From: Patescibacteria group bacterium
GTDB lineage: Bacteria > Patescibacteriota > Patescibacteriia > UBA10025 > JAHIVO01
NCBI GenBank assembly: GCA_043808365.1
Contig: JAZDEZ010000015.1
Coordinates: forward strand, 20,683 to 84,682
DNA: 64,000 bases
Direction: 5' to 3'
Numbering within the stretch: position 1 is the first letter of the stretch; every line of letters starts with the position of its first letter. Under the pieces are notes generated by a model. It did no database searches and was not told the origin of the DNA. It saw only the letters and a program-made list of their open reading frames with translations. Both the position numbers and the translations under genes were made by a program. Of this stretch, positions 4,350 to 54,248 are shown piece after piece.

Positions 4350-4613
4350 GTGAAAATTAAATTGCCAATGTGCACTATTAGTTTGGTTATCCTAGCGATT
4401 TCGCCCTATCCTGTCAAGGTTACTCACTGTCAAAGTCACTCACTTGACGAAAAAATCGGCGGAACGGTCCACCTAGCACTGGGCAATTCCATCCCCGAAT
4501 CAGGCGGAAAAAACAAGAGCAGTATCCACTGGGACATGCTCTGTGACATGCATCAGGGAGAAATCACCGCGGACGGCAAGGTGATATACCGTAACGGCAA
4601 ATTCACCATCTAA
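4350..4613 (+). pseudogene. Probable C-terminal remnant of an M29-family (aminopeptidase T-like) metallopeptidase.
   Basis: [45 protein letters not shown] resembles the conserved C-terminus of thermophilic M29 aminopeptidases. There is no N-terminal ~300 aa, because that space is occupied by the convergent PLP enzyme gene. Confidence 0.3.
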
Positions 4614-5370: not shown

Positions 5371-6141
5371 ATGCCGCTTGACCAACTCACGCCGCAAAAC
5401 CCGCCGACCACATCGTCCGCCTCATTGCCTTCTGACAGTAAAATGCCGGCTGAACCAATAAAAAGACATCACTTCTTCCGTAATTTCCTGATTACTTTGG
5501 TAGTAATCATTATCATTGTCGCCATCGGCGTTTCCGCTACGGGCGTGTATGCCGTACCGGGTATTTCTAACATTTTCGGCATGAACAAGCCGAAAGACCT
5601 GGGAGTGACTTATACCGATGCCGACCTGACTGCCTTAGCCAAGAAAGTCCCTCTCACTATCAGCACGGAACGGGTGGATTATACCGGCGATCCGAGCCAG
5701 ATTTTCAGCGGGACGGTGCCGGTAGACACGCAGAACACCTCGGCGGAAATCACCGGCTTTTTGAACAGCCGGGCCCTCTCCACCTCGCCAGTCAAGGACC
5801 TGCAAGTCAAAATGATCGAGGGCGGCGTGGAAGTGTCGGGCAACCTGGATATGTACGTGAAATCTCCGGCGTACGCCAAGATCATGATCAACCGCACCGG
5901 TGAAAAAAGCGTGGCCATAGACATTACCAAGGCAAAAATCGGGATATTCAACGTCCCGGACAAATATCTCCGGAAGGTTACCGAATGGGCGAATAAAACA
6001 GTGAATGAGCGGATGGCCGGCATCCCCGGATTTTCGCTTACCCAGCTCGACTACCATGACGGATATGATGTTTTCAAGGGCACCATGCCGGCAAACGTGA
6101 AAGGAGCTGCCGGCGGATGGACTGACCTGATCCTGAAATGA
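5371..6141 (+). CDS. Hypothetical N-terminally membrane-anchored extracytoplasmic protein.
   Basis: Pro/Ser-rich N-terminus, then one TM segment (LITLVVIIIIVAIGVSATGVYAV), then a soluble domain. Confidence 0.45.
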   Translation: MPLDQLTPQNPPTTSSASLPSDSKMPAEPIKRHHFFRNFLITLVVIIIIVAIGVSATGVYAVPGISNIFGMNKPKDLGVTYTDADLTALAKKVPLTISTERVDYTGDPSQIFSGTVPVDTQNTSAEITGFLNSRALSTSPVKDLQVKMIEGGVEVSGNLDMYVKSPAYAKIMINRTGEKSVAIDITKAKIGIFNVPDKYLRKVTEWANKTVNERMAGIPGFSLTQLDYHDGYDVFKGTMPANVKGAAGGWTDLILK

Positions 6142-6158
6142 CGCAACTATTAGTCAGA

Positions 6159-6184
6159 GCCTCGCGTTACCGCGGGGCTTTTTA
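6159..6184 (+). terminator. Rho-independent terminator.
   Basis: GCCTCGCG-TTAC-CGCGGGGC stem-loop followed by TTTTT, 18 nt after the stop codon. Confidence 0.45.
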
Positions 6185-6204: not shown

Positions 6205-6232
6205 TTTGACTCCACGCACAACAGTCCTATAC
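6205..6232 (+). promoter_or_regulatory. Sigma70-like promoter for the heliorhodopsin gene.
   Basis: TTGACT, 16-nt spacer, TATACT, placed ~30 nt upstream of ATG 6262. Confidence 0.35.
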
Positions 6233-6261
6233 TATATATATTATTGAATAACTAAAAATCT

Positions 6262-7056
6262 ATGGAAACCTCCACATCCCCCATACCTGAGGAAATAAAG
6301 CTTAAAAAACTCAAGCGTTTCAATATCATCATGGCCTGTCTCCATGCCATCCAGGGCGTGGTCATGCTGGTCGTCAGTTCAGATTTTTCCCTGCCGGTCA
6401 CTACGGCCTTCGTCAAGATGAATTTCCTGTCCGGAAAACTGGAGCCGGTGCTGAATACACTGTTTGATTTGCGCATCGGCCCGTTGGTCGCCGGCTTTCT
6501 GTTCCTGTCGGCCATCGCCCACGCCTGTATCTCGCTCGTGCCTGGCATCAATGCCTGGTACAACCGCAACCTGCTCAGGGGCGCCAACTATGCCCGGTGG
6601 ATTGAGTACGCCTTCAGCTCCTCAATTATGATGATTGTCATCGCCATGCTGGTCGGCGTCTATGACGGTATCGCCCTTTTACTCATCTTCTTCCTCAATG
6701 CCATGATGATCCTCTTCGGCTGGATGATGGAGCTGCACAACCAGACGACCCAGAAAACAAATTGGACATCTTACATTTTTGGCTGTATCGCCGGCGCGAT
6801 CCCGTGGATAGCTGTTGGCCTTTATCTGTTCAATGCCGGCGAAGGCGATGCGAAAGCGCCGACCTTTGTTTACTGGATTTATTTCTCCATCTTTCTGTTT
6901 TTCAACTGTTTTGCCGTCAACCAGGTACTTCAGTATAAGAAAGTCGGCAAATGGCAGGACTACCTGTACGGTGAACGTGCATATATCATCCTGAGCCTGA
7001 TAGCAAAATCCCTGCTGGCCTGGCAGGTGTTCGCCGGGACATTACGGCCGGTATAA
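6262..7056 (+). CDS. Heliorhodopsin (7-TM retinal-binding photoreceptor, inverted topology).
   Basis: 264 aa with a block-by-block match to the heliorhodopsin family: RWIEYAFSSSIMM, MILFGWMMEL, FGCIAGAIPWI, FLFFNCFAV, QYKKVGKW, YGERAYIILSLIAKSLLAWQVF. The last block contains the conserved Schiff-base lysine. Confidence 0.8.
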   Translation: METSTSPIPEEIKLKKLKRFNIIMACLHAIQGVVMLVVSSDFSLPVTTAFVKMNFLSGKLEPVLNTLFDLRIGPLVAGFLFLSAIAHACISLVPGINAWYNRNLLRGANYARWIEYAFSSSIMMIVIAMLVGVYDGIALLLIFFLNAMMILFGWMMELHNQTTQKTNWTSYIFGCIAGAIPWIAVGLYLFNAGEGDAKAPTFVYWIYFSIFLFFNCFAVNQVLQYKKVGKWQDYLYGERAYIILSLIAKSLLAWQVFAGTLRPV

Positions 7057-7414
7057 ATCCTCAACCCCACATTAAAAAACTTCGAGCGCGCCCCGCTGTC
7101 GCTGGCTTTTCTTATATATAATTGCGTATCATTGTATCCATCCCCCAACCGCCCATATAAAAAAATGTTACGGAAATTGAGTGAGGAGGAGCGGTTCTAA
7201 GGGGAACGAAGAACAGCGTTGTACTGTTTGAGCCCCGAGTGGAACGAGGGGCGAGTTTACAACACTGAGCGACGACGAGCCAATTTACGTTAATTTTTTT
7301 GTCTGGGCGGAATCTCCCTTCGACTTCGCTCAGGGCATGCTTTTCGCCGCTTTGGCGCCTGTCCCGCCGAATGGCGGGAGATTCGCAGAAAAGCGGCTAA
7401 AAACAAAAACCCCA

Positions 7415-7443
7415 TTGACATCAGTGCATAACCATGCTACCAT
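7415..7443 (+). promoter_or_regulatory. Sigma70-like promoter.
   Basis: TTGACA, 17-nt spacer, TACCAT, ~80 nt upstream of the SD and ATG of the 7525 ORF. Confidence 0.35.
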
Positions 7444-7524
7444 AGAGGGCTTTCTTTTTGGTAAAATAAACATATCCAATATTTGGGTATTTGTACCTCA
7501 CAACCATTCATCAAGGAGGATTGA

Positions 7525-7743
7525 ATGAACGGATCTCGTGTCCCAAACACCACACCACCCGCCGACCTCGAGCGGATGGCGGACAGACTACTGAATGAAA
7601 AACACTTCAAGGCCAATGGTGCGCCATATAGTGCACCAGACACCAGCATTGAAAGTCACCTGGAGTGCGTTCCTCTCAGTAAAATTATCCCCGACCCGAC
7701 CGGAATGGCGTTCGTCACTCTAAAACCGGAGCCGGAATGGTAG
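7525..7743 (+). CDS. Small hypothetical protein (72 aa).
   Basis: Strong SD (AAGGAGGATTGA-ATG), its own promoter, and a terminator immediately downstream. Confidence 0.4.
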   Translation: MNGSRVPNTTPPADLERMADRLLNEKHFKANGAPYSAPDTSIESHLECVPLSKIIPDPTGMAFVTLKPEPEW

Positions 7744-7773
7744 TCAGGGGCAACTAGTACTCCTGAATACCGA

Positions 7774-7806
7774 CCCTGGATGCATGATGCTCCAGGGTTT
7801 TTTAAT
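7774..7806 (+). terminator. Rho-independent terminator.
   Basis: CCCTGGA...TCCAGGG perfect 7-bp stem followed by T8. Confidence 0.55.
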
Positions 7807-7871
7807 TTTTCTCAAAATTTTGAGCCATGCGACGGCGAAAAAGTTTCGGCAGAAAAATTATCCCGAGGAAC

Positions 7872-7954
7872 ATTGTGACGAGGGATCTCACACATTTCCA
7901 GTACCGAGATTGCCACGTCCCCCCAGGGCTCCGCTCGGGGTCCTCGCAATGACA
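7872..7954 (-). repeat. Copy R1 of the GTCATTGCGAGG...GGCAATCTCGGT MITE-like dispersed repeat.
   Basis: Its reverse complement aligns with the 25710-25836 copy (GTCATTGCGAGGA ... GACGTGGCAATCTCGGT). Confidence 0.4.
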
Positions 7955-7994
7955 AGGTAGGGGGCAGCTGGAATTAGCTGGCCCCAATACTTTT

Positions 7995-9146: not shown

Positions 9147-9246
9147 TCTACCCGCACCTCATTGCCCTTGCTGAAAGGGTGGTTTTGTGATACCCTTCTC
9201 TTACAAATAAAAATTGAACTTGAACATTATAACACAAGAGGTGCGT

Positions 9247-10395
9247 ATGATCGACAGTCTTTCCCATTTGAGCCAAAGCGACAGTTATTATGCGCGTGAC
9301 CCACTGACATTGCGTCAATCGCTATTGTCCCGGCGCGACATGAAAATTATCTGTCGCGACAGCCGCCGCCGACACACGCCGAGCGAAACGGACGATACCC
9401 AAGACCATTATGAATGGTGTCGCTACTGTTCAGATGGCACACACCGACATTCCCATCTGACAAATAGGGTGATCGATGAAATATCGATAGACGGACAGCC
9501 GGTGATAGCAGTGACCAAGAAAGACCTGGACGTGACCATTATGGGCCCTGTCATTAAACAGGGCGACGGTAACTTCGGCCTACAGACGAACATTGGTGTT
9601 GATGAAACAGTCGCTATCGGCTCTAGGCATTCCCTACGGATGACGGAGCTGCCGGTGAAATTATTCGCCGCAAGCCTGACCATGTGCTTTAGGCGAATCA
9701 GCGACCTGAACGGCGATTCCCGGTTGGCCAACATCATTATGTGGTCGGAGGTGAACAACCTTGCGCAGGAATTTGGTTTTGTTCATCCGCACTGGCATAT
9801 TGCCGGACACACTGAAGAATTCCCCCGCCCCGGTGAGGAGATGGAGATGTGCTACCACCATTACTACACAATGAGGCATCTCCGCTGTTTGATGTGTGAC
9901 ATTTTAACGGATGAGCTGAGGCTTGAACAGCTAATAGTCGGATTGACGCCGCATTTCGTTGCCTTTATCCCTCGTGCCGCCCGGCATCCATTTGAAACAT
10001 GGGTAGTGCCTAGGCAGCACTCATCAACATTTGAATCCATCTGCGCCAGCCAACCAGACATCAGCCAATTCAATATTGAATTGGCTGGACTACTTAAGGA
10101 TCTTCTAAAGAAAATGGAAAAATTCCTGGGGCCCCGCTGTCCGATCGAGTTGTTACTGTACAATGCGCCACATAACTACCATATCGGCTTTCCGTCTGCC
10201 AGCAGTACGCTGCACGCGGAAGAAATCGATCCGTGCTTCCATACCAGATTCCGTGTCAGACCGATCTTTGCCCAACGCTCCATGCGTTCTAGCGCCACCG
10301 GTATCGCCTTCAACCGCCTCCTCCCTTCCGAATCAGCCCGACTGCTGAATATGCCGGACGATAAAATTGATCAATGGGTCATAAGCACCGATTGA
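9247..10395 (+). CDS. HIT-superfamily, GalT-like two-repeat nucleotidyltransferase/phosphorylase with an N-terminal CxxC.
   Basis: HPHWHIA (H-phi-H-phi-H-phi-phi HIT motif) in the first half. The second half-repeat is HPFETWVVPRQH. EWCRYCSDGTHRHSH is a Zn-site-like element. Start taken at the SD-preceded ATG 9247; the ORF is listed from 9214. Confidence 0.45.
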   Translation: MIDSLSHLSQSDSYYARDPLTLRQSLLSRRDMKIICRDSRRRHTPSETDDTQDHYEWCRYCSDGTHRHSHLTNRVIDEISIDGQPVIAVTKKDLDVTIMGPVIKQGDGNFGLQTNIGVDETVAIGSRHSLRMTELPVKLFAASLTMCFRRISDLNGDSRLANIIMWSEVNNLAQEFGFVHPHWHIAGHTEEFPRPGEEMEMCYHHYYTMRHLRCLMCDILTDELRLEQLIVGLTPHFVAFIPRAARHPFETWVVPRQHSSTFESICASQPDISQFNIELAGLLKDLLKKMEKFLGPRCPIELLLYNAPHNYHIGFPSASSTLHAEEIDPCFHTRFRVRPIFAQRSMRSSATGIAFNRLLPSESARLLNMPDDKIDQWVISTD

Positions 10396-16440: not shown

Positions 16441-16572
16441 ACATCTGGAAATTTTCGGGCTGAAACGGAGTCAGCGGGAAATTCCCGTATTAACACATTC
16501 TAACATTCTTAAGAATGTTCAAATTTAAATTTACCTCCGAAGATTCGCGCGAACGATTCCATATGGATAGCC

Positions 16573-16802
16573 GCGCACCCAGGGACGGGTGCGCTTGGCA
16601 GAAACAAAAAATCCTATCTCACACTTCTCGCTTCCCGCTTCCCGACTCGCATCCCACATCTGAAACTCACCTCCAACCTCCAACTTCCTATCTAATATCT
16701 CCCCCTACGGGGGATCTCCCGAAGGGAGATAATAACTTACACCCAACAACCAATCTCCTCGCTAACCACTAATTACTAGTGGCTAACAACTAGCGACTAA
16801 CA
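16573..16802 (+). repeat. Copy A of a ~190-230-nt pyrimidine-rich intergenic element: a 5' GC hairpin, CCUCC-containing repeats, and a stop-codon-rich tail.
   Basis: GCGCACCCAGGGACGGGTGCGC hairpin, then ATCCTATCTCACAC...CACCTCCAACCTCCAACTTCC...ACTAATTACTAGTGGCTAACAACTAGC. It aligns with the copy at 28520-28688. Confidence 0.5.
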
Positions 16803-21424: not shown

Positions 21425-21467
21425 ACCTGCATTGTACTGGAAAAATGGCCGGATGGCAAAAATGCTC

Positions 21468-21496
21468 TTGACATGATCTAATGTTTACTGTACAAT
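21468..21496 (+). promoter_or_regulatory. Near-consensus sigma70 promoter driving the retron locus, divergent from glyA.
   Basis: TTGACA, 17-nt spacer, TACAAT. Confidence 0.5.
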
Positions 21497-21502
21497 ACGG
21501 GT

Positions 21503-21778
21503 TGCCAAATTACGTGGCTATGGCGATTCGCCATATTTGATGGTTTTTGAATCTCGAAAGAACTTTTTCAACTCAAAGAAATACCTCCTCTATGCGCGTC
21601 TATCCGCGTCCCTAGCATAGCCTAGGGGTTACTGTTTTCCGCACACAAGGTACAGATTGTAATTGGTACTTTACTGAAATAAGGCTGAAATTACTGTTTA
21701 TCAGTTATAGATAAATTTTTTCTAAAAGGTCGGGGATGACACTCATCCAAAAAACCATTAAAGAAAGGAGGCACAACA
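21503..21778 (+). ncRNA. Candidate retron non-coding RNA (msr/msd) region. Its boundaries are not defined.
   Basis: ~280 nt with no ORF, lying between a strong promoter and the retron-type RT gene. Several stem-loops are present (ATGGCGA-T-TCGCCAT, CCCTAG-CATAGC-CTAGGG, ACTG...CAGT). I could not identify unambiguous a1/a2 repeats by eye. Confidence 0.3.
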
Positions 21779-21985
21779 ATGAAAAAGAAATATTCGGGAA
21801 GAAGGGTAATTTCCACTCTTTCGCTGCGTTACAGTAGGTCCGTTAACTCCTCTGACTCAAATTTAGGCGCACTGCGACAGTTCATAAATGGATGTAAAAA
21901 ACTGTGGAAAATCATATCAACCCTACCTTTTTATCAATTAACTCGCCCGCTAATCACGGGCGAGGTTTTAATACAACAAATTTAA
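21779..21985 (+). CDS. Small basic hypothetical protein (68 aa) overlapping the RT start in another frame.
   Basis: Best SD in the locus (AAAGAAAGGAGGCACAACA-ATG). No recognisable domain. It may instead be non-coding msd sequence. Confidence 0.3.
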   Translation: MKKKYSGRRVISTLSLRYSRSVNSSDSNLGALRQFINGCKKLWKIISTLPFYQLTRPLITGEVLIQQI

Positions 21986-22890
21986 AATTAAAAAACTTAT
22001 CTGATCTCGCCAAATTAATAAATACTCCTGTCTGGTTTATAAATAAATTGATCCAAACAAGACAAAAACGATATAACTTTTGGAATTACCCCAAAAAAAG
22101 TGGCGGTATTAGAACTTTGTCGAGACCAGATGCTGAATTACGGTTTGTCCAAGAAAAGATATATCAAAATATTCTCCGTTTTGTACCTCTTCCTGAATAC
22201 ATTCACTCACAAATAGGCCATTCCCATGTACAACACGCAGTTAGCCATCAAGGTAAACCGCTGGTTTTACTTTTTGATATTGCCGACTTTTTCCCAAGCA
22301 TTAGTACCAGAATGGTAAAAAACGCATTAACCCATGCGGGATTTACTGAAATTGTCGCAAAAAAAATAGCTAACCTGTGCACATTATCGAATAAAAGTAC
22401 ATCGCATGGATTTCTCCCTCAAGGAACCTCAACCAGTCCAGCATTGGCAACACTAGTGGCGACATCGCTTGATCATCGTCTATGGAAACTGAGTTCTAAA
22501 AATAATTGGATCTATACCCGTTTTGCTGATGATATCGCAATTTCAGGAGGTCTAGGCCTAAGACGAGCAAAAAAACTAATACTCAATATTATCAACAGTT
22601 CCAATTTCAAGGTAAGGGAGTCAAAAACTGAAGAAATAATCCCCGGACGCCGTAATAAAATAGTAGGGCTGCAACTTTATGGAAAAAATATTACGCCGCC
22701 AAGAGAATATTACAAACTTTTACGATCTATGATCCACCATCTTCAAACCAATAAAATACGTGGAAAAGCCAGACTGAAATTAAGAAAAAGTATTCAATCA
22801 AGGCTTTCATACGGTCTTTACGTTGAAAAAATAAGCAACACAAAACAAGGAAAGTTTTTTCGGCTTGCCCAAGCAATAACTATCGCTTAA
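21904..22890 (+). CDS. Retron-type reverse transcriptase (GTG start).
   Basis: RT motifs 1-2 YPKKSGGIRTL, motif A LLFDIADFFPSI, motif B' LPQGTSTSPALATL, motif C YTRFADDIAI. The thumb region RRNKIVGLQLYGKNITPPREYYKLLRSMIHHL parallels the retron-RT VTG...IHH region. 328 aa is a typical retron RT length. Confidence 0.8.
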   Translation: MENHINPTFLSINSPANHGRGFNTTNLKLKNLSDLAKLINTPVWFINKLIQTRQKRYNFWNYPKKSGGIRTLSRPDAELRFVQEKIYQNILRFVPLPEYIHSQIGHSHVQHAVSHQGKPLVLLFDIADFFPSISTRMVKNALTHAGFTEIVAKKIANLCTLSNKSTSHGFLPQGTSTSPALATLVATSLDHRLWKLSSKNNWIYTRFADDIAISGGLGLRRAKKLILNIINSSNFKVRESKTEEIIPGRRNKIVGLQLYGKNITPPREYYKLLRSMIHHLQTNKIRGKARLKLRKSIQSRLSYGLYVEKISNTKQGKFFRLAQAITIA

Positions 22891-22891
22891 T

Positions 22892-23416
22892 TTATTTCAC
22901 CTTCGCCCAGAGGTACTCACTGATCAATCTCCCCCGCTTTTTGACCACTTTGCGCATCAGGCCTTCGCGCTTAAAACCGTTCTTTTTTAAAACCTTTTGC
23001 GATGCTCGATTTGGGACAAACGTATACGCGTACACCCGATGAAGTTTGAACTTTTTAAACGCATAGTTAACCACCAGCTTCACTGCCTCTGGGATTATAC
23101 CCTGACCCCAGTATCTCCGTGCCAGCCAATAGCCGATTTCCGCCTTGTGTCGTGGTTCGATATGCGACAAACCGACACACCCGACAATCTCCCTATCCAT
23201 CTCAATGGCAAATTGAATATCTTTGGGTGAGCGCTGACGGTACTGCGGGATTGTCTTGGCAAACCACTTTGTGGCGTCGGACAAACGGTAGGGGTATGGG
23301 ATATGCAATGTGTACCGGTATATTTTGTAGTCGTTAATATTACGGGCTACAGCTGGCGCGTCCGACAGGCGATATGGCCGTAACACAAAACGCTTGGTTT
23401 TGATGACGTAGTTCAT
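22892..23416 (-). CDS. GNAT family N-acetyltransferase (RimJ/RimL-like).
   Basis: RFVLRPYRLSDA..., IVGCVGL, and the acetyl-CoA motif RRYWGQGIIPEAVKLVVNYAF. Confidence 0.75.
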   Translation of the reverse strand: MNYVIKTKRFVLRPYRLSDAPAVARNINDYKIYRYTLHIPYPYRLSDATKWFAKTIPQYRQRSPKDIQFAIEMDREIVGCVGLSHIEPRHKAEIGYWLARRYWGQGIIPEAVKLVVNYAFKKFKLHRVYAYTFVPNRASQKVLKKNGFKREGLMRKVVKKRGRLISEYLWAKVK

Positions 23417-23426
23417 TGGTGGAGTC

Positions 23427-24377
23427 CTATTTTACTAAAAACTTCCTTACCGATTCCAGCTGTCCGGCACTGCCCAGCATCTCGTTCTTATGGACAATGT
23501 ATTTAGCATATTCGGCCATAAACACCTTGCCGGGTTTGCGCAGGTCAAACACTTCCGGATGGTCGCGGAACATTTCCCGGTGCACGCGGCACCACACCAG
23601 CCGTCCGTCCGTATCGATGTTCACCTTGGTCACGCCCATTGCGGCCGCTTTCTTGAACTGCGTCTCATCCACGCCTTTGGCGCCTTTCATAACACCGCCG
23701 GCCGCGTTGATGCGGTCAATCTCGTCCTTCGGCACGGAGCTGGATCCGTGCATGACTAACGGGAAACCGGGTAATAATTTCTCAATGCCTTCGATTACCT
23801 CAAAATGCAGGCCTTGCGTACCGGCGAATTTATAGGCGCCGTGGCTCGTGCCGATGGCGCAGGCTAAGCTGTCGCAGCCGGTCTGGGCGACGAATTCTTT
23901 GGCTTGCACGGGGTCGGTCAATTTCGCATCGCTCTCCGCCACGCTGACATGCTCCTCAACGCCGCCGAGCTGGCCCAATTCCGCCTCAACTGAAATTCCT
24001 TTGGCATGGGCCGCGGCAACGACCCGCTTGGTGGCGGCGACATTGCCGTCAAACGGAAGTGCGGACGCGTCGATCATGACCGAACTGTAAAATCCGCCGG
24101 TAATGCAGTCCAGGCATGCCGCTTCATCGCCATGGTCCAGGTGGACGGCGAAAATCGCTGCTGGAAAAATTTCTTCAGCCGACTTGATCATTGCTTCCAA
24201 TAATCGCTTGTCAGTATATTCCCTAGCGCCTTTGGATATTTGGATAATGAACGGCGCCTGGCTGTCCAAGTTGCCCTGGAACAAGCCCATGATCTGCTCG
24301 GCGTTATTGATGTTATAAGCGCCGACGGCATATTTTTTATATGCGTGCTTAAATAATTTTTCTGTGGCGACGATCAT
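23427..24377 (-). CDS. fba: Class II fructose-bisphosphate aldolase.
   Basis: FIIQISKGAREY, AVHLDHGD, HGSSSVP, and a class II aldolase C-terminus. Confidence 0.85.
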   Translation of the reverse strand: MIVATEKLFKHAYKKYAVGAYNINNAEQIMGLFQGNLDSQAPFIIQISKGAREYTDKRLLEAMIKSAEEIFPAAIFAVHLDHGDEAACLDCITGGFYSSVMIDASALPFDGNVAATKRVVAAAHAKGISVEAELGQLGGVEEHVSVAESDAKLTDPVQAKEFVAQTGCDSLACAIGTSHGAYKFAGTQGLHFEVIEGIEKLLPGFPLVMHGSSSVPKDEIDRINAAGGVMKGAKGVDETQFKKAAAMGVTKVNIDTDGRLVWCRVHREMFRDHPEVFDLRKPGKVFMAEYAKYIVHKNEMLGSAGQLESVRKFLVK

Positions 24378-28438: not shown

Positions 28439-28519
28439 ACTAAGCTATTCCACTGTTCACGTCAAGTCTAGATAGGCAAAAGGATTTTCCGATGGCGTGC
28501 TTTTTTATTAAAAATAGTC

Positions 28520-28688
28520 GCGCACCCAGAGACAGGTGCGCTCGGAGGATATTCATTATCCTACCTCACCCATCTGAATCCAACATCCAACCACTAACTT
28601 CCTAACCAACTTCTTACCCTCCCCCTTATAGCTCCCATAGCTCTTCTATCCCCACTAACTACTAACCTACTAATGGCTAGCTACTAGC
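28520..28688 (+). repeat. Copy B of the pyrimidine-rich intergenic element. Its tail overlaps the last codons of Elp3.
   Basis: GCGCACCCAGAGACAGGTGCGC hairpin after a T-run, then ATCCTACCTCACCC...CATCCAACCACTAACTTCC...CTAATGGCTAGCTACTAGC, collinear with copy A. Confidence 0.5.
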
Positions 28689-52879: not shown

Positions 52880-54031
52880 TTACTTCTTCAGTACGCCAAC
52901 CTTATCCAGCTTCTCCCAGGGGAATTCCACGTCAGTCCGGCCGAAATGCCCGTAGGCGGCAGTCTTCTCATAGATCGGCTGCTTAAGGTGCAGTTGCTCG
53001 ATGATATCCGCCGGTTTTAACGGGAAATGCTTCCTGACCAAATCTTCCAGATCACCGTTCTCCAGCTTGCCGGTGCCGAACGTATTGATCATGATCGAAA
53101 CCGGCTCGGCCACGCCGATAGCATAAGCCAACTGGACTTCGCACCGCTTGGCCAGGCCCGCGGCGACAATATTTTTTGCGATATAACGCGCGGCGTATGA
53201 AGCGCTGCGATCGACTTTGGTGACGTCTTTGCCGGAAAAACACCCTCCTCCATGCGCGCCTACCCCGCCATAGGTATCAACAATTATCTTGCGGCCAGTC
53301 AGGCCCGTGTCGCCTGGAGGCCCGCCAATGACAAAGCGGCCAGTGGCGTTAATAAAAAAATTAATTTTTTCATCGTACCAATCTCCCAAAACTGGTTTGA
53401 TGACATACTCCTTAATGTCTGCCCGAAGTTTCTCCATTTCCACGTCTTCCGAATGATGCGCGGCAATGACCACCGTCTCAATGCGATGCGGCTTGTCGTC
53501 CGCATACTCTACGGTCACCTGCGATTTGCCGTCGGGCCTTAAATAAGGAAGCTGGCCGCTCTTGCGAACCTCGGCCAGTTTATGCGTGAGCCGGTGAGCC
53601 AGTGAAATGGTCAATGGCATGTACTCCGGCGTCTCGTCGCAGGCGTAGCCGAACATCAGGCCCTGATCGCCGGCCCCCTGCTCCTTGCGCTCGCCCGTGC
53701 CGTCCACGCCCTGGGCGATGTCGGGCGATTGTTCGTGGATGGTGCTGATCACGCCCACATCCTTATAGCAGAAACCGTACTCGGATTTGTCGTACCCGAT
53801 TTTCTTGAGTGTCCGGCGGACGATCGCCTGGATGTCCACATAGCCGGTCGTCTTGACCTCGCCGCCGACCAGCACCAGGCCGGTGGTGACAAAACATTCC
53901 ACGGCCGAGTGGCAGTCCTTATCCTGCTTCAGCATGTCGTCATACACCGCATCCGAGATTTGGTCGCACACCTTGTCCGGGTGCCCCTCCGTGACCGACT
54001 CCGAGGTGAATAATTTTTTCTGATGTGACAT
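52880..54031 (-). CDS. metK: S-adenosylmethionine synthetase.
   Basis: [29 protein letters not shown]. Confidence 0.9.
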
Positions 54032-54061: not shown

Positions 54062-54248
54062 GTAAAAAATAAAAAAAATCTCCTATCAGATAAGAGATTA
54101 CTACAGAGAATTCACCTCTTATCTATCCCCCGCACCTTGAGGCGTGGGAGCTGGACTTAGCACCCGAACTTCGTCTTGTGCCCGAATGGGTTGCTGGAGT
54201 GTCAACGGCCCAGTTGCCTACACTCACTCTTGATAATTGGTTGGGTTG
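54062..54248 (-). ncRNA. SAM-I (S-box) riboswitch with a terminator expression platform, in the metK leader.
   Basis: Read on the minus strand: UUAUCAAGAG...CUGGGCC...AGCAACC...GGUGCUAAGUCCAGC...P4 hairpin...GAUAGAUAAGAGG, which follows the SAM-I consensus order. It is followed by the AATCTCTTATC-TGAT-AGGAGATT hairpin and U8. Confidence 0.65.

Follow-up and report, generated by a model that had tools for sequence, protein, structure and literature searches.

A full-length heliorhodopsin under purifying selection in a Patescibacteria contig, probably a light sensor with scavenged retinal

Introduction

To what end would a bacterium with a small genome keep a light receptor when no gene for making its chromophore lies nearby? 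The question is raised by a 64-kb stretch of contig JAZDEZ010000015.1 from a Patescibacteria group bacterium (hereafter the window, meaning the whole stretch that was analysed), in which an open reading frame (ORF) of 795 nt at 6262-7056 on the + strand encodes a protein of 264 aa. An original prediction, made from the sequence and its translated ORFs, read this protein as a heliorhodopsin (HeR) that senses light with scavenged retinal, gave its gene a promoter and a terminator of its own, and offered a 72-aa ORF further downstream as a possible partner. Here we confirm that the ORF encodes a genuine, intact, full-length heliorhodopsin and not a type-1 ion-pumping rhodopsin, and we weigh what such a protein may do in this host.

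HeRs of this host group have been surveyed before: Chiriac et al. 2022 found 98 heliorhodopsins among 1,326 genomes from the CPR (candidate phyla radiation) that they screened (PMC9166423), and the HeR context analysis of Bulzu et al. 2021 covers Patescibacteria (PMC8612252). Jaffe et al. 2022 found blh to be lacking in CPR rhodopsin carriers and argue for retinal uptake (PMC9296517); citing Shihoya 2019, they point to HeR as an earlier case in which retinal from outside is bound fast by way of an opening in the apoprotein. Experimentally shown partners of HeR are glutamine synthetase for AbHeR (PMC9529153), photolyase for TfHeR (PMC9769723) and the ABC transporter OmrDE for OcHeR (PMC11109279).

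Results

A heliorhodopsin with an invariant Schiff-base lysine

The profile check bears out the family assignment: the protein matches PF18761 with E=4.7e-100 and 334.3 bits (cutoff 26.7) over profile positions 1-242 of 242, and the NCBIfam equivalog NF038020 'heliorhodopsin HeR' with 339.9 bits (cutoff 100). More than 7,000 homologues are found at E<=1e-20, and the nearest ones, dozens of sequences at 65-91% identity, come from Patescibacteria metagenome-assembled genomes (MAGs) of Kerfeldbacteria, Berkelbacteria, Dojkabacteria and Saccharibacteria, some of them entered as 'heliorhodopsin HeR [Patescibacteria group bacterium]' and others under Kerfeldbacteria. The closest solved structures are those of TaHeR (6IS6, E=3.9e-80) and of the bacterial 48C12 (6SU3, E=1e-60). 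PF01036 (Bac_rhodopsin) gives no match to the protein, whose helix 7 carries SxxxK and not the DxxxK of type-1 rhodopsins. Six of the seven family blocks quoted in the original prediction are present to the letter, among them RWIEYAFSSSIM at residues 112-123, MILFGW at 149-154, FGCIAGAIPWI at 173-183, FLFFNCFA at 211-218 and GERAYIILSLIAKSLLAWQVF at 237-257; the remaining one, 'QY..K.GKW', had been mis-spaced, the real string being QYKKVGKW at 224-231.

We aligned the window HeR with TaHeR, 48C12 and 69 HeRs of related loci (72 sequences). The Schiff-base lysine that had been placed in the last helix holds on accurate alignment as K249, equivalent to K241 of 48C12 and K238 of TaHeR, within the motif S245-L-I-A-K249; its column is invariant, as is that of S245 (S237 in 48C12, S234 in TaHeR), and SLIAK is among the three commonest helix-7 motifs of CPR heliorhodopsins (PMC9166423). 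Equally invariant are the counterion position in helix 3, E115 (E107 in 48C12, E108 in TaHeR), and both H28 and H87, which correspond to the His23/His80(82) pair of the Schiff-base cavity, while the columns of S83, R112, W113, Y116, S119, E157, Y234, E238 and Y241 are invariant or nearly so. The criteria proposed for the lateral fenestration ask, in 48C12 numbering, for an aromatic residue at each of 162 and 206, a small one at each of 166 and 210, G169 and N207 (preprint 10.1101/2025.11.27.691015; PMC7049168); at the sequence level the putative fenestration/carotenoid-site motif is complete, with Y171, C175, G178, F214, N215 and A218.

The modelled fold agrees with this picture. An AlphaFold2 model from a 40-sequence alignment (mean predicted local distance difference test score, pLDDT, 85.3) has seven long helices, of which A and B are joined by a long beta-hairpin at 43-71 (strands 43-54 and 59-71). 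Compared with the PDB by Foldseek, its top ten matches are all HeR structures (template modelling, TM, scores of 0.80-0.89, with 6IS6 at 0.85-0.89), as against type-1 rhodopsins at only 0.46-0.59 with 9-16% identity. The predicted cytoplasmic segments carry 10 lysines and arginines, against 5 on the outer ones, a positive-inside count that is consistent with a cytoplasmic N-terminus, the inverted topology predicted also by homology, without amounting to proof.

The best solved relative, TaHeR of Thermoplasmatales archaeon SG8-52-1 (PDB 6IS6, 7CLJ, 7U55), is 53% identical and shares with the window HeR the Schiff-base lysine, the glutamate counterion, the histidine pair, the fenestration tyrosine (Y164, here Y171) and the HNQTTQxTNWTSY loop. 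As cited in PMC9296517, the TaHeR host likewise lacks retinal synthesis and TaHeR takes up retinal through the fenestration. The two differ in host, archaeal as opposed to bacterial, in four residues inserted into the EF loop of the window HeR (NAGEGDAKAP, against ISAESVP), at the fenestration rim (F211 and A179 in place of A200 and F172) and in Q221, where TaHeR has M210. The founding bacterial HeR, 48C12 (PDB 6SU3, 6UH3; 41-44% identity), has functional residues K241, E107, H23, H80, S76, S237, N138 and Q213, all of which recur in the window HeR; it derives from an actinobacterial fosmid, differs in its DE loop and carries F162 where the window HeR has Y171. From the CPR HeRs of PMC9166423 and PMC8612252, which share its host group and helix-7 motif and are discussed there in terms of reduced genomes, the window HeR shows no substantive difference.

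A reduced genome and no pigment genes in the window

GenBank holds exact matches (100%) to the two proteins encoded upstream of HeR and to the 72-aa ORF, V1668_02380, V1668_02385 and V1668_02395, on a MAG contig of 115,259 bp labelled 'Patescibacteria group bacterium'. These names, together with synteny, place the host in the Patescibacteria, and the contigs of 0.9-1.2 Mb of some relatives fit the small genome that had been supposed. The other genes of the window are ordinary housekeeping genes, among them rpoBC, recA, ftsK, plsX, trpS, efp, rpsF, glyA, folD, pfk, fba and metK, accompanied by FemAB and Mur ligase genes; outer-membrane gene families were absent from general scans of the window, which included no dedicated envelope-type analysis.

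Of the window's 61 non-overlapping ORFs with 80 aa or more, 57 were scanned with Pfam for retinal genes, all but four short ones. None of the 57 in the 64 kb gave a match to Blh/BCD, lycopene cyclase, phytoene synthase (SQS_PSY), phytoene desaturase, an RPE65 carotenoid oxygenase or a Bac_rhodopsin, in line with the earlier statement that blh, crtY and bacteriorhodopsin-type genes are not found nearby.

An absence of pigment genes would also suit the reading that the protein is mainly a carotenoid plus retinal 'two-antenna' light harvester drawing on exogenous xanthophylls, and not a sensor (preprint 10.1101/2025.11.27.691015), and all six positions of the proposed carotenoid-binding/fenestration motif are indeed present. 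We nevertheless regard this reading as unlikely: the proposal is based on docking and sequence motifs and not on measured HeR energy transfer (10.1101/2025.11.27.691015), prokaryotic HeRs have no known energy-conserving output such as ion transport, and the motif, being common to 91% of HeRs, says nothing specific about this one. That the window HeR, both of whose chromophores would need import, reports contact with a pigment-producing host is a further reading that we hold to be improbable.

HeR as a predicted transcription unit of its own

For comparison, ORFs were called and clustered in 80 HeR loci (L001-L080) and in the window's own locus (WIN). Two of these, L001 and L002, are syntenic relatives of the window with ~80% nucleotide identity over 20 kb.

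The promoter that had been claimed for HeR stands as a prediction, a sigma-70-like site (Table 1) whose -10 element and TAAATGCACGTTTT block are conserved in both relatives in a three-way alignment. The claimed terminator fell: the + strand scan finds none directly after HeR, and the 80 nt past the stop codon fold no better than shuffled sequences (z=+1.2), so that a terminator immediately 3' of the gene is rejected. Downstream of HeR, no + strand terminator is convincing before the one at 7772-7805, which follows the 72-aa ORF and is 82% conserved with L001. On the other side, the terminator of the preceding gene keeps its stem with differing sequences in L001 and L002 and insulates HeR from its two upstream genes. 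Flanked by this terminator and by 468 nt of non-coding sequence, HeR is predicted to be monocistronic, and its neighbours are a family-less membrane-anchored protein, the 72-aa orphan and tryptophanyl-tRNA synthetase (TrpRS). A non-coding RNA in the 938-nt gap at 7057-7994 was considered and dropped, as Rfam gives no match at gathering thresholds; at E<=1 its matches are at chance level, the best two overlapping terminators, and the fold of 7140-7280 (z=-2.4) is not compelling as a non-coding RNA.

The two upstream genes, encoding a PF27226 lipoprotein and a 256-aa membrane-anchored protein, might be taken to form a functional module with HeR. One or both recur near HeR in several lineages, whose HeRs are 60-83% identical, lying within ~3 kb of it in WIN/L001/L002, L003, L004, L010, L011, L026, L031, L043 and L058, and in L003 the pair has been relocated to the opposite side of HeR. 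Against a module stand the strong terminator between the pair and HeR, the lack of both genes at ~60 of 70 HeR loci, and the behaviour of the pair outside the HeR-selected set, where all three homologues looked up independently for the 256-aa protein are without a HeR inside 6 kb and one of these loci, L083 (5426-6780), carries the PF27226 lipoprotein and the 256-aa protein together without HeR. Both families are narrow, with 24-40 homologues in 5.8e9 proteins, all in related Patescibacteria, and residual synteny explains the pattern. An obligate module is rejected on the three homologue loci, and a functional module of any kind seems to us quite improbable; the pair looks like a unit of its own whose closeness to HeR reflects residual synteny.

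Retention of HeR amid gene loss

Against L001 and L002 the HeR protein is 90-91% identical with synonymous sites near saturation, and its ratio of nonsynonymous to synonymous substitution rates (dN/dS) is 0.052 and 0.044, respectively, next to 0.045 for the adjacent TrpRS. These ratios point to strong purifying selection on HeR, at the level of its neighbour. The surroundings have fared differently. On either flank of HeR the window has lost DNA that is still present in L001: ~3.9 kb (STAS, AhpC/peroxiredoxin, RidA, M29 peptidase) on one side, and on the other the two genes directly downstream of HeR. From the M29 aminopeptidase there remains a C-terminal remnant with 34% identity to the full 375-aa L001 gene, which we read as evidence of ongoing gene loss beside HeR. 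HeR itself has been kept intact through the loss of flanking genes.

That the window has lost neighbours retained by L001, including the glycosylase gene that follows HeR there, and that the titles of many related MAGs mention groundwater, could be taken to mean that HeR is a decaying relic or serves some light-independent role, its relatives being from dark aquifers. We hold this to be very improbable, given a dN/dS of 0.05 that equals that of an essential aminoacyl-tRNA synthetase, an intact reading frame, chromophore-pocket residues that are all invariant and a conserved promoter; a light-independent role, moreover, would need no retention of K249, E115, H28 and H87.

The downstream 72-aa ORF

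The 72-aa ORF exists where it had been predicted, and the promoter claimed for it corresponds to a promoter-like site conserved in L001 and L002. Because it has this site, a ribosome-binding site and a terminator of its own (Table 1), and homologues of ~75 aa in L001 (11791-12018) and L002 with a shared C-terminal DPxGMxFVxLxPxPEW, it is a real, lineage-restricted orphan gene and a separate transcription unit. By tblastn against the 80 HeR loci it is found only in L001 and L002, none of the remaining 77 having it, phmmer run exhaustively over 1.84e9 representative proteins returned the protein itself and two weak matches to long repeat proteins only, and there is no Pfam or NCBIfam match and no predicted membrane segment. 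Among close relatives the protein is 39-41% identical (dN/dS ~0.39), against 91% for HeR. Its position is uninformative on function because L001 and L002 are syntenic with the window throughout 20 kb.

The suggestion that it is the partner of HeR in a sensor-transducer pair, to which the shared strand, the 468-nt distance, possible read-through (no convincing terminator lies between the two) and the position kept in L001 and L002 lend some colour, is therefore rejected as scarcely credible, since two other genes separate HeR from the 72-aa homologue in those relatives, the ORF comes with a conserved promoter of its own, a strong ribosome-binding site and a terminator, no homologue accompanies the other 77 HeRs, and the protein diverges fast beside a highly conserved HeR and has neither a known domain nor a predicted membrane segment.

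Damage-defence genes beside HeR in relatives

The 121 genes that immediately adjoin HeR across 68 surveyed loci match 102 different Pfam families, the commonest being DUF1295 (3), Pyr_excise (3), DUF2177 (2), DNA photolyase (2) and VIT1 (2), with MsrA, MsrB and an AlkZ-like glycosylase among the single cases. HeR neighbourhoods in Patescibacteria are thus heterogeneous with a flavour of light damage and oxidative stress, in agreement with published analyses. In L001, L002 and L003, the three closest relatives, a pyrimidine-dimer DNA glycosylase gene (Pyr_excise) begins 4-13 nt past the HeR stop codon on the same strand, an arrangement that looks like an operon. A leftover of it in the window was considered and rejected: tblastn finds no remnant of Pyr_excise or of its neighbour gene, either in the gap or in the rest of the 64 kb. 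Titles and abstracts on heliorhodopsin plus pyrimidine dimer hold no report of the pair, and the word 'glycosylase' is absent from PMC11109279.

Table 1. Positions of features at the HeR locus; coordinates are those of the window unless a related locus is named.
Feature	Position	Strand	Evidence or remark
M29 aminopeptidase C-terminal remnant, 87-aa ORF	4350-4613, best match 4392-4607	+	PF02073 positions 331-406
Lipoprotein-like protein, 177 aa	4799-5332	+	PF27226 'AF_1845' by relatives; near HeR in ~7 lineages
Membrane-anchored protein, 256 aa, no family	5371-6141	+	Adjoins HeR in WIN, L001, L002, L004, L010
Intrinsic terminator of upstream gene	6156-6184	+	Hairpin and U-run, free energy -23.7 kcal/mol, z=-4.2
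Sigma-70-like promoter of HeR, TTGACT-16-TATACT	6206-6233	+	Consensus scan, 10/12 matches; pattern match only
Promoter-like site of 72-aa ORF, TTGACA-17-TACCAT with TG extension	7415-7443	+	-35 invariant in L001, L002
Ribosome-binding site of 72-aa ORF, AAGGAGG	7513-7519	+	Sequence
72-aa ORF, GenBank MFH1207433.1 (hypothetical)	7525-7743	+	Homologous ORFs in L001, L002
Strong intrinsic terminator after 72-aa ORF	7772-7805	+	Free energy -28.6 kcal/mol, z=-4.0
Pyrimidine-dimer DNA glycosylase (Pyr_excise, PF03013)	L001 10802-11134, L002 10802-11134, L003 10811-11146	+	E=3e-25

Other features of the window

A 393-aa ORF at 9214-10395 (+), which resembles galactose-1-phosphate uridylyltransferase only weakly, scoring below the cutoff of GalP_UDP_tr_C (23.5 bits, cutoff 29.2) and far below that of its NCBIfam match (46 vs 448), is on sequence grounds a predicted divergent HIT-family enzyme, conserved in L002. 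Further along, a 328-aa reverse transcriptase at 21904-22890 (+) matches Pfam RVT_1 and is classed as retron-type by PADLOC (RT_III-A 2.4e-60, RT_II-A 3.1e-59). The 480-nt gene-free stretch upstream of it (21425-21903) could encode an msr/msd RNA, GC content falls to 0.456 in 22001-24000, and no effector gene was identified. Two copies of an intergenic element, at 16567-16706 and 28514-28620 (~76% identity), consist of a GC hairpin, GCGCACCC-N6-GGGTGCGC, followed by a G-poor tract rich in C, T and A; the element has no match in related loci. An S-adenosylmethionine (SAM) riboswitch (RF00162, 55 bits) at 54116-54239 (-) lies upstream of metK (52880-54031, -), an ordinary arrangement.

Discussion

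Using a combination of profile searches, residue-level alignment, structure modelling and comparison of related loci, we consider it likely that the window encodes a functional, retinal-scavenging, non-transporting HeR sensor that tunes the defence against photodamage or oxidative damage. Light sensing with scavenged retinal, as originally proposed, accords with the standard published inference for HeRs without blh (PMC9296517) and with a fenestration motif that is intact in sequence. By analogy with the characterised family, all-trans retinal would be imported from the surroundings or from a host, entering through a lateral fenestration between helices E and F, and would form a covalent, protonated Schiff base at K249, for which E115 is the counterion. 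Green light would then set off a slow photocycle that lasts seconds and brings about no net transport of ions, and the long-lived photoproduct would alter the cytoplasmic surface of HeR and so modulate a partner protein. In this organism the partner would not be encoded beside HeR, and relatives suggest, as a best guess, enzymes of damage defence; we favour light-dependent tuning of such defence as the most likely role because a glycosylase adjoins HeR in the closest relatives, and photolyase or methionine-sulfoxide reductases do so in other Patescibacteria.

Several observations weigh against this proposal. Retinal binding, photocycle and partner are all inferred from the characterised family, and this window lacks the damage-defence genes found beside HeR in relatives. 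The sheer spread of families among neighbours (102 at 68 loci) weakens the assignment of any single partner. The window covers 64 kb of a genome of probably ~1 Mb, and retinal synthesis may be encoded elsewhere in it. Furthermore, the titles of many HeR-carrying Patescibacteria MAGs point to groundwater, a setting in which the use of a light sensor is hard to see; title words of this kind among L001-L080 include NC_groundwater, RIFCSPLOWO2, CG08_land, GW2011, HGW-Dojkabacteria and SO_..._GW1.

The comparison with HeRs of known partner marks out where the present case differs. In AbHeR, TfHeR and OcHeR the partner gene lies in the HeR operon, in contrast to the window HeR with its predicted monocistronic transcript, and neither glutamine synthetase nor photolyase nor an ABC transporter is adjacent to it. 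The groups of PMC11109279, which include DUF2177, are defined by a same-strand partner in the operon, and the window HeR has none. That it regulates another protein in a light-dependent manner is an assumption carried over from AbHeR, TfHeR and OcHeR.

A more specific version of the damage-defence proposal would make HeR in this lineage the light input of a photodamage response. As neither the locus nor the rest of the 64-kb window has Pyr_excise, HeR would here have to act on a partner encoded elsewhere in the present genome. We advance this only as a speculation with the odds well against it. If true, control by HeR of an enzyme of base-excision UV repair would add a new class of HeR partner, parallel to the HeR-photolyase case.

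The novelty implied by the original prediction does not hold up. This exact protein is already in GenBank as MFH1207432.1, 'heliorhodopsin HeR [Patescibacteria group bacterium]', and CPR HeRs have been surveyed (PMC9166423, PMC8612252); both the protein and its interpretation in terms of scavenged retinal are already in GenBank and the literature, and because the one is annotated and the biology of the other published, the finding is not new. Its importance beyond correct annotation is small. The only leads of some mild use are the pairing of HeR with a pyrimidine-dimer glycosylase in close relatives, which may represent a new class of partner, and the puzzling occurrence of HeRs in groundwater MAGs. 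For the biology of the group, the locus confirms a point that has been published before: in a CPR bacterium with a reduced genome, a light receptor is maintained by selection as strong as that on TrpRS, although the cell apparently relies on a chromophore made by others.

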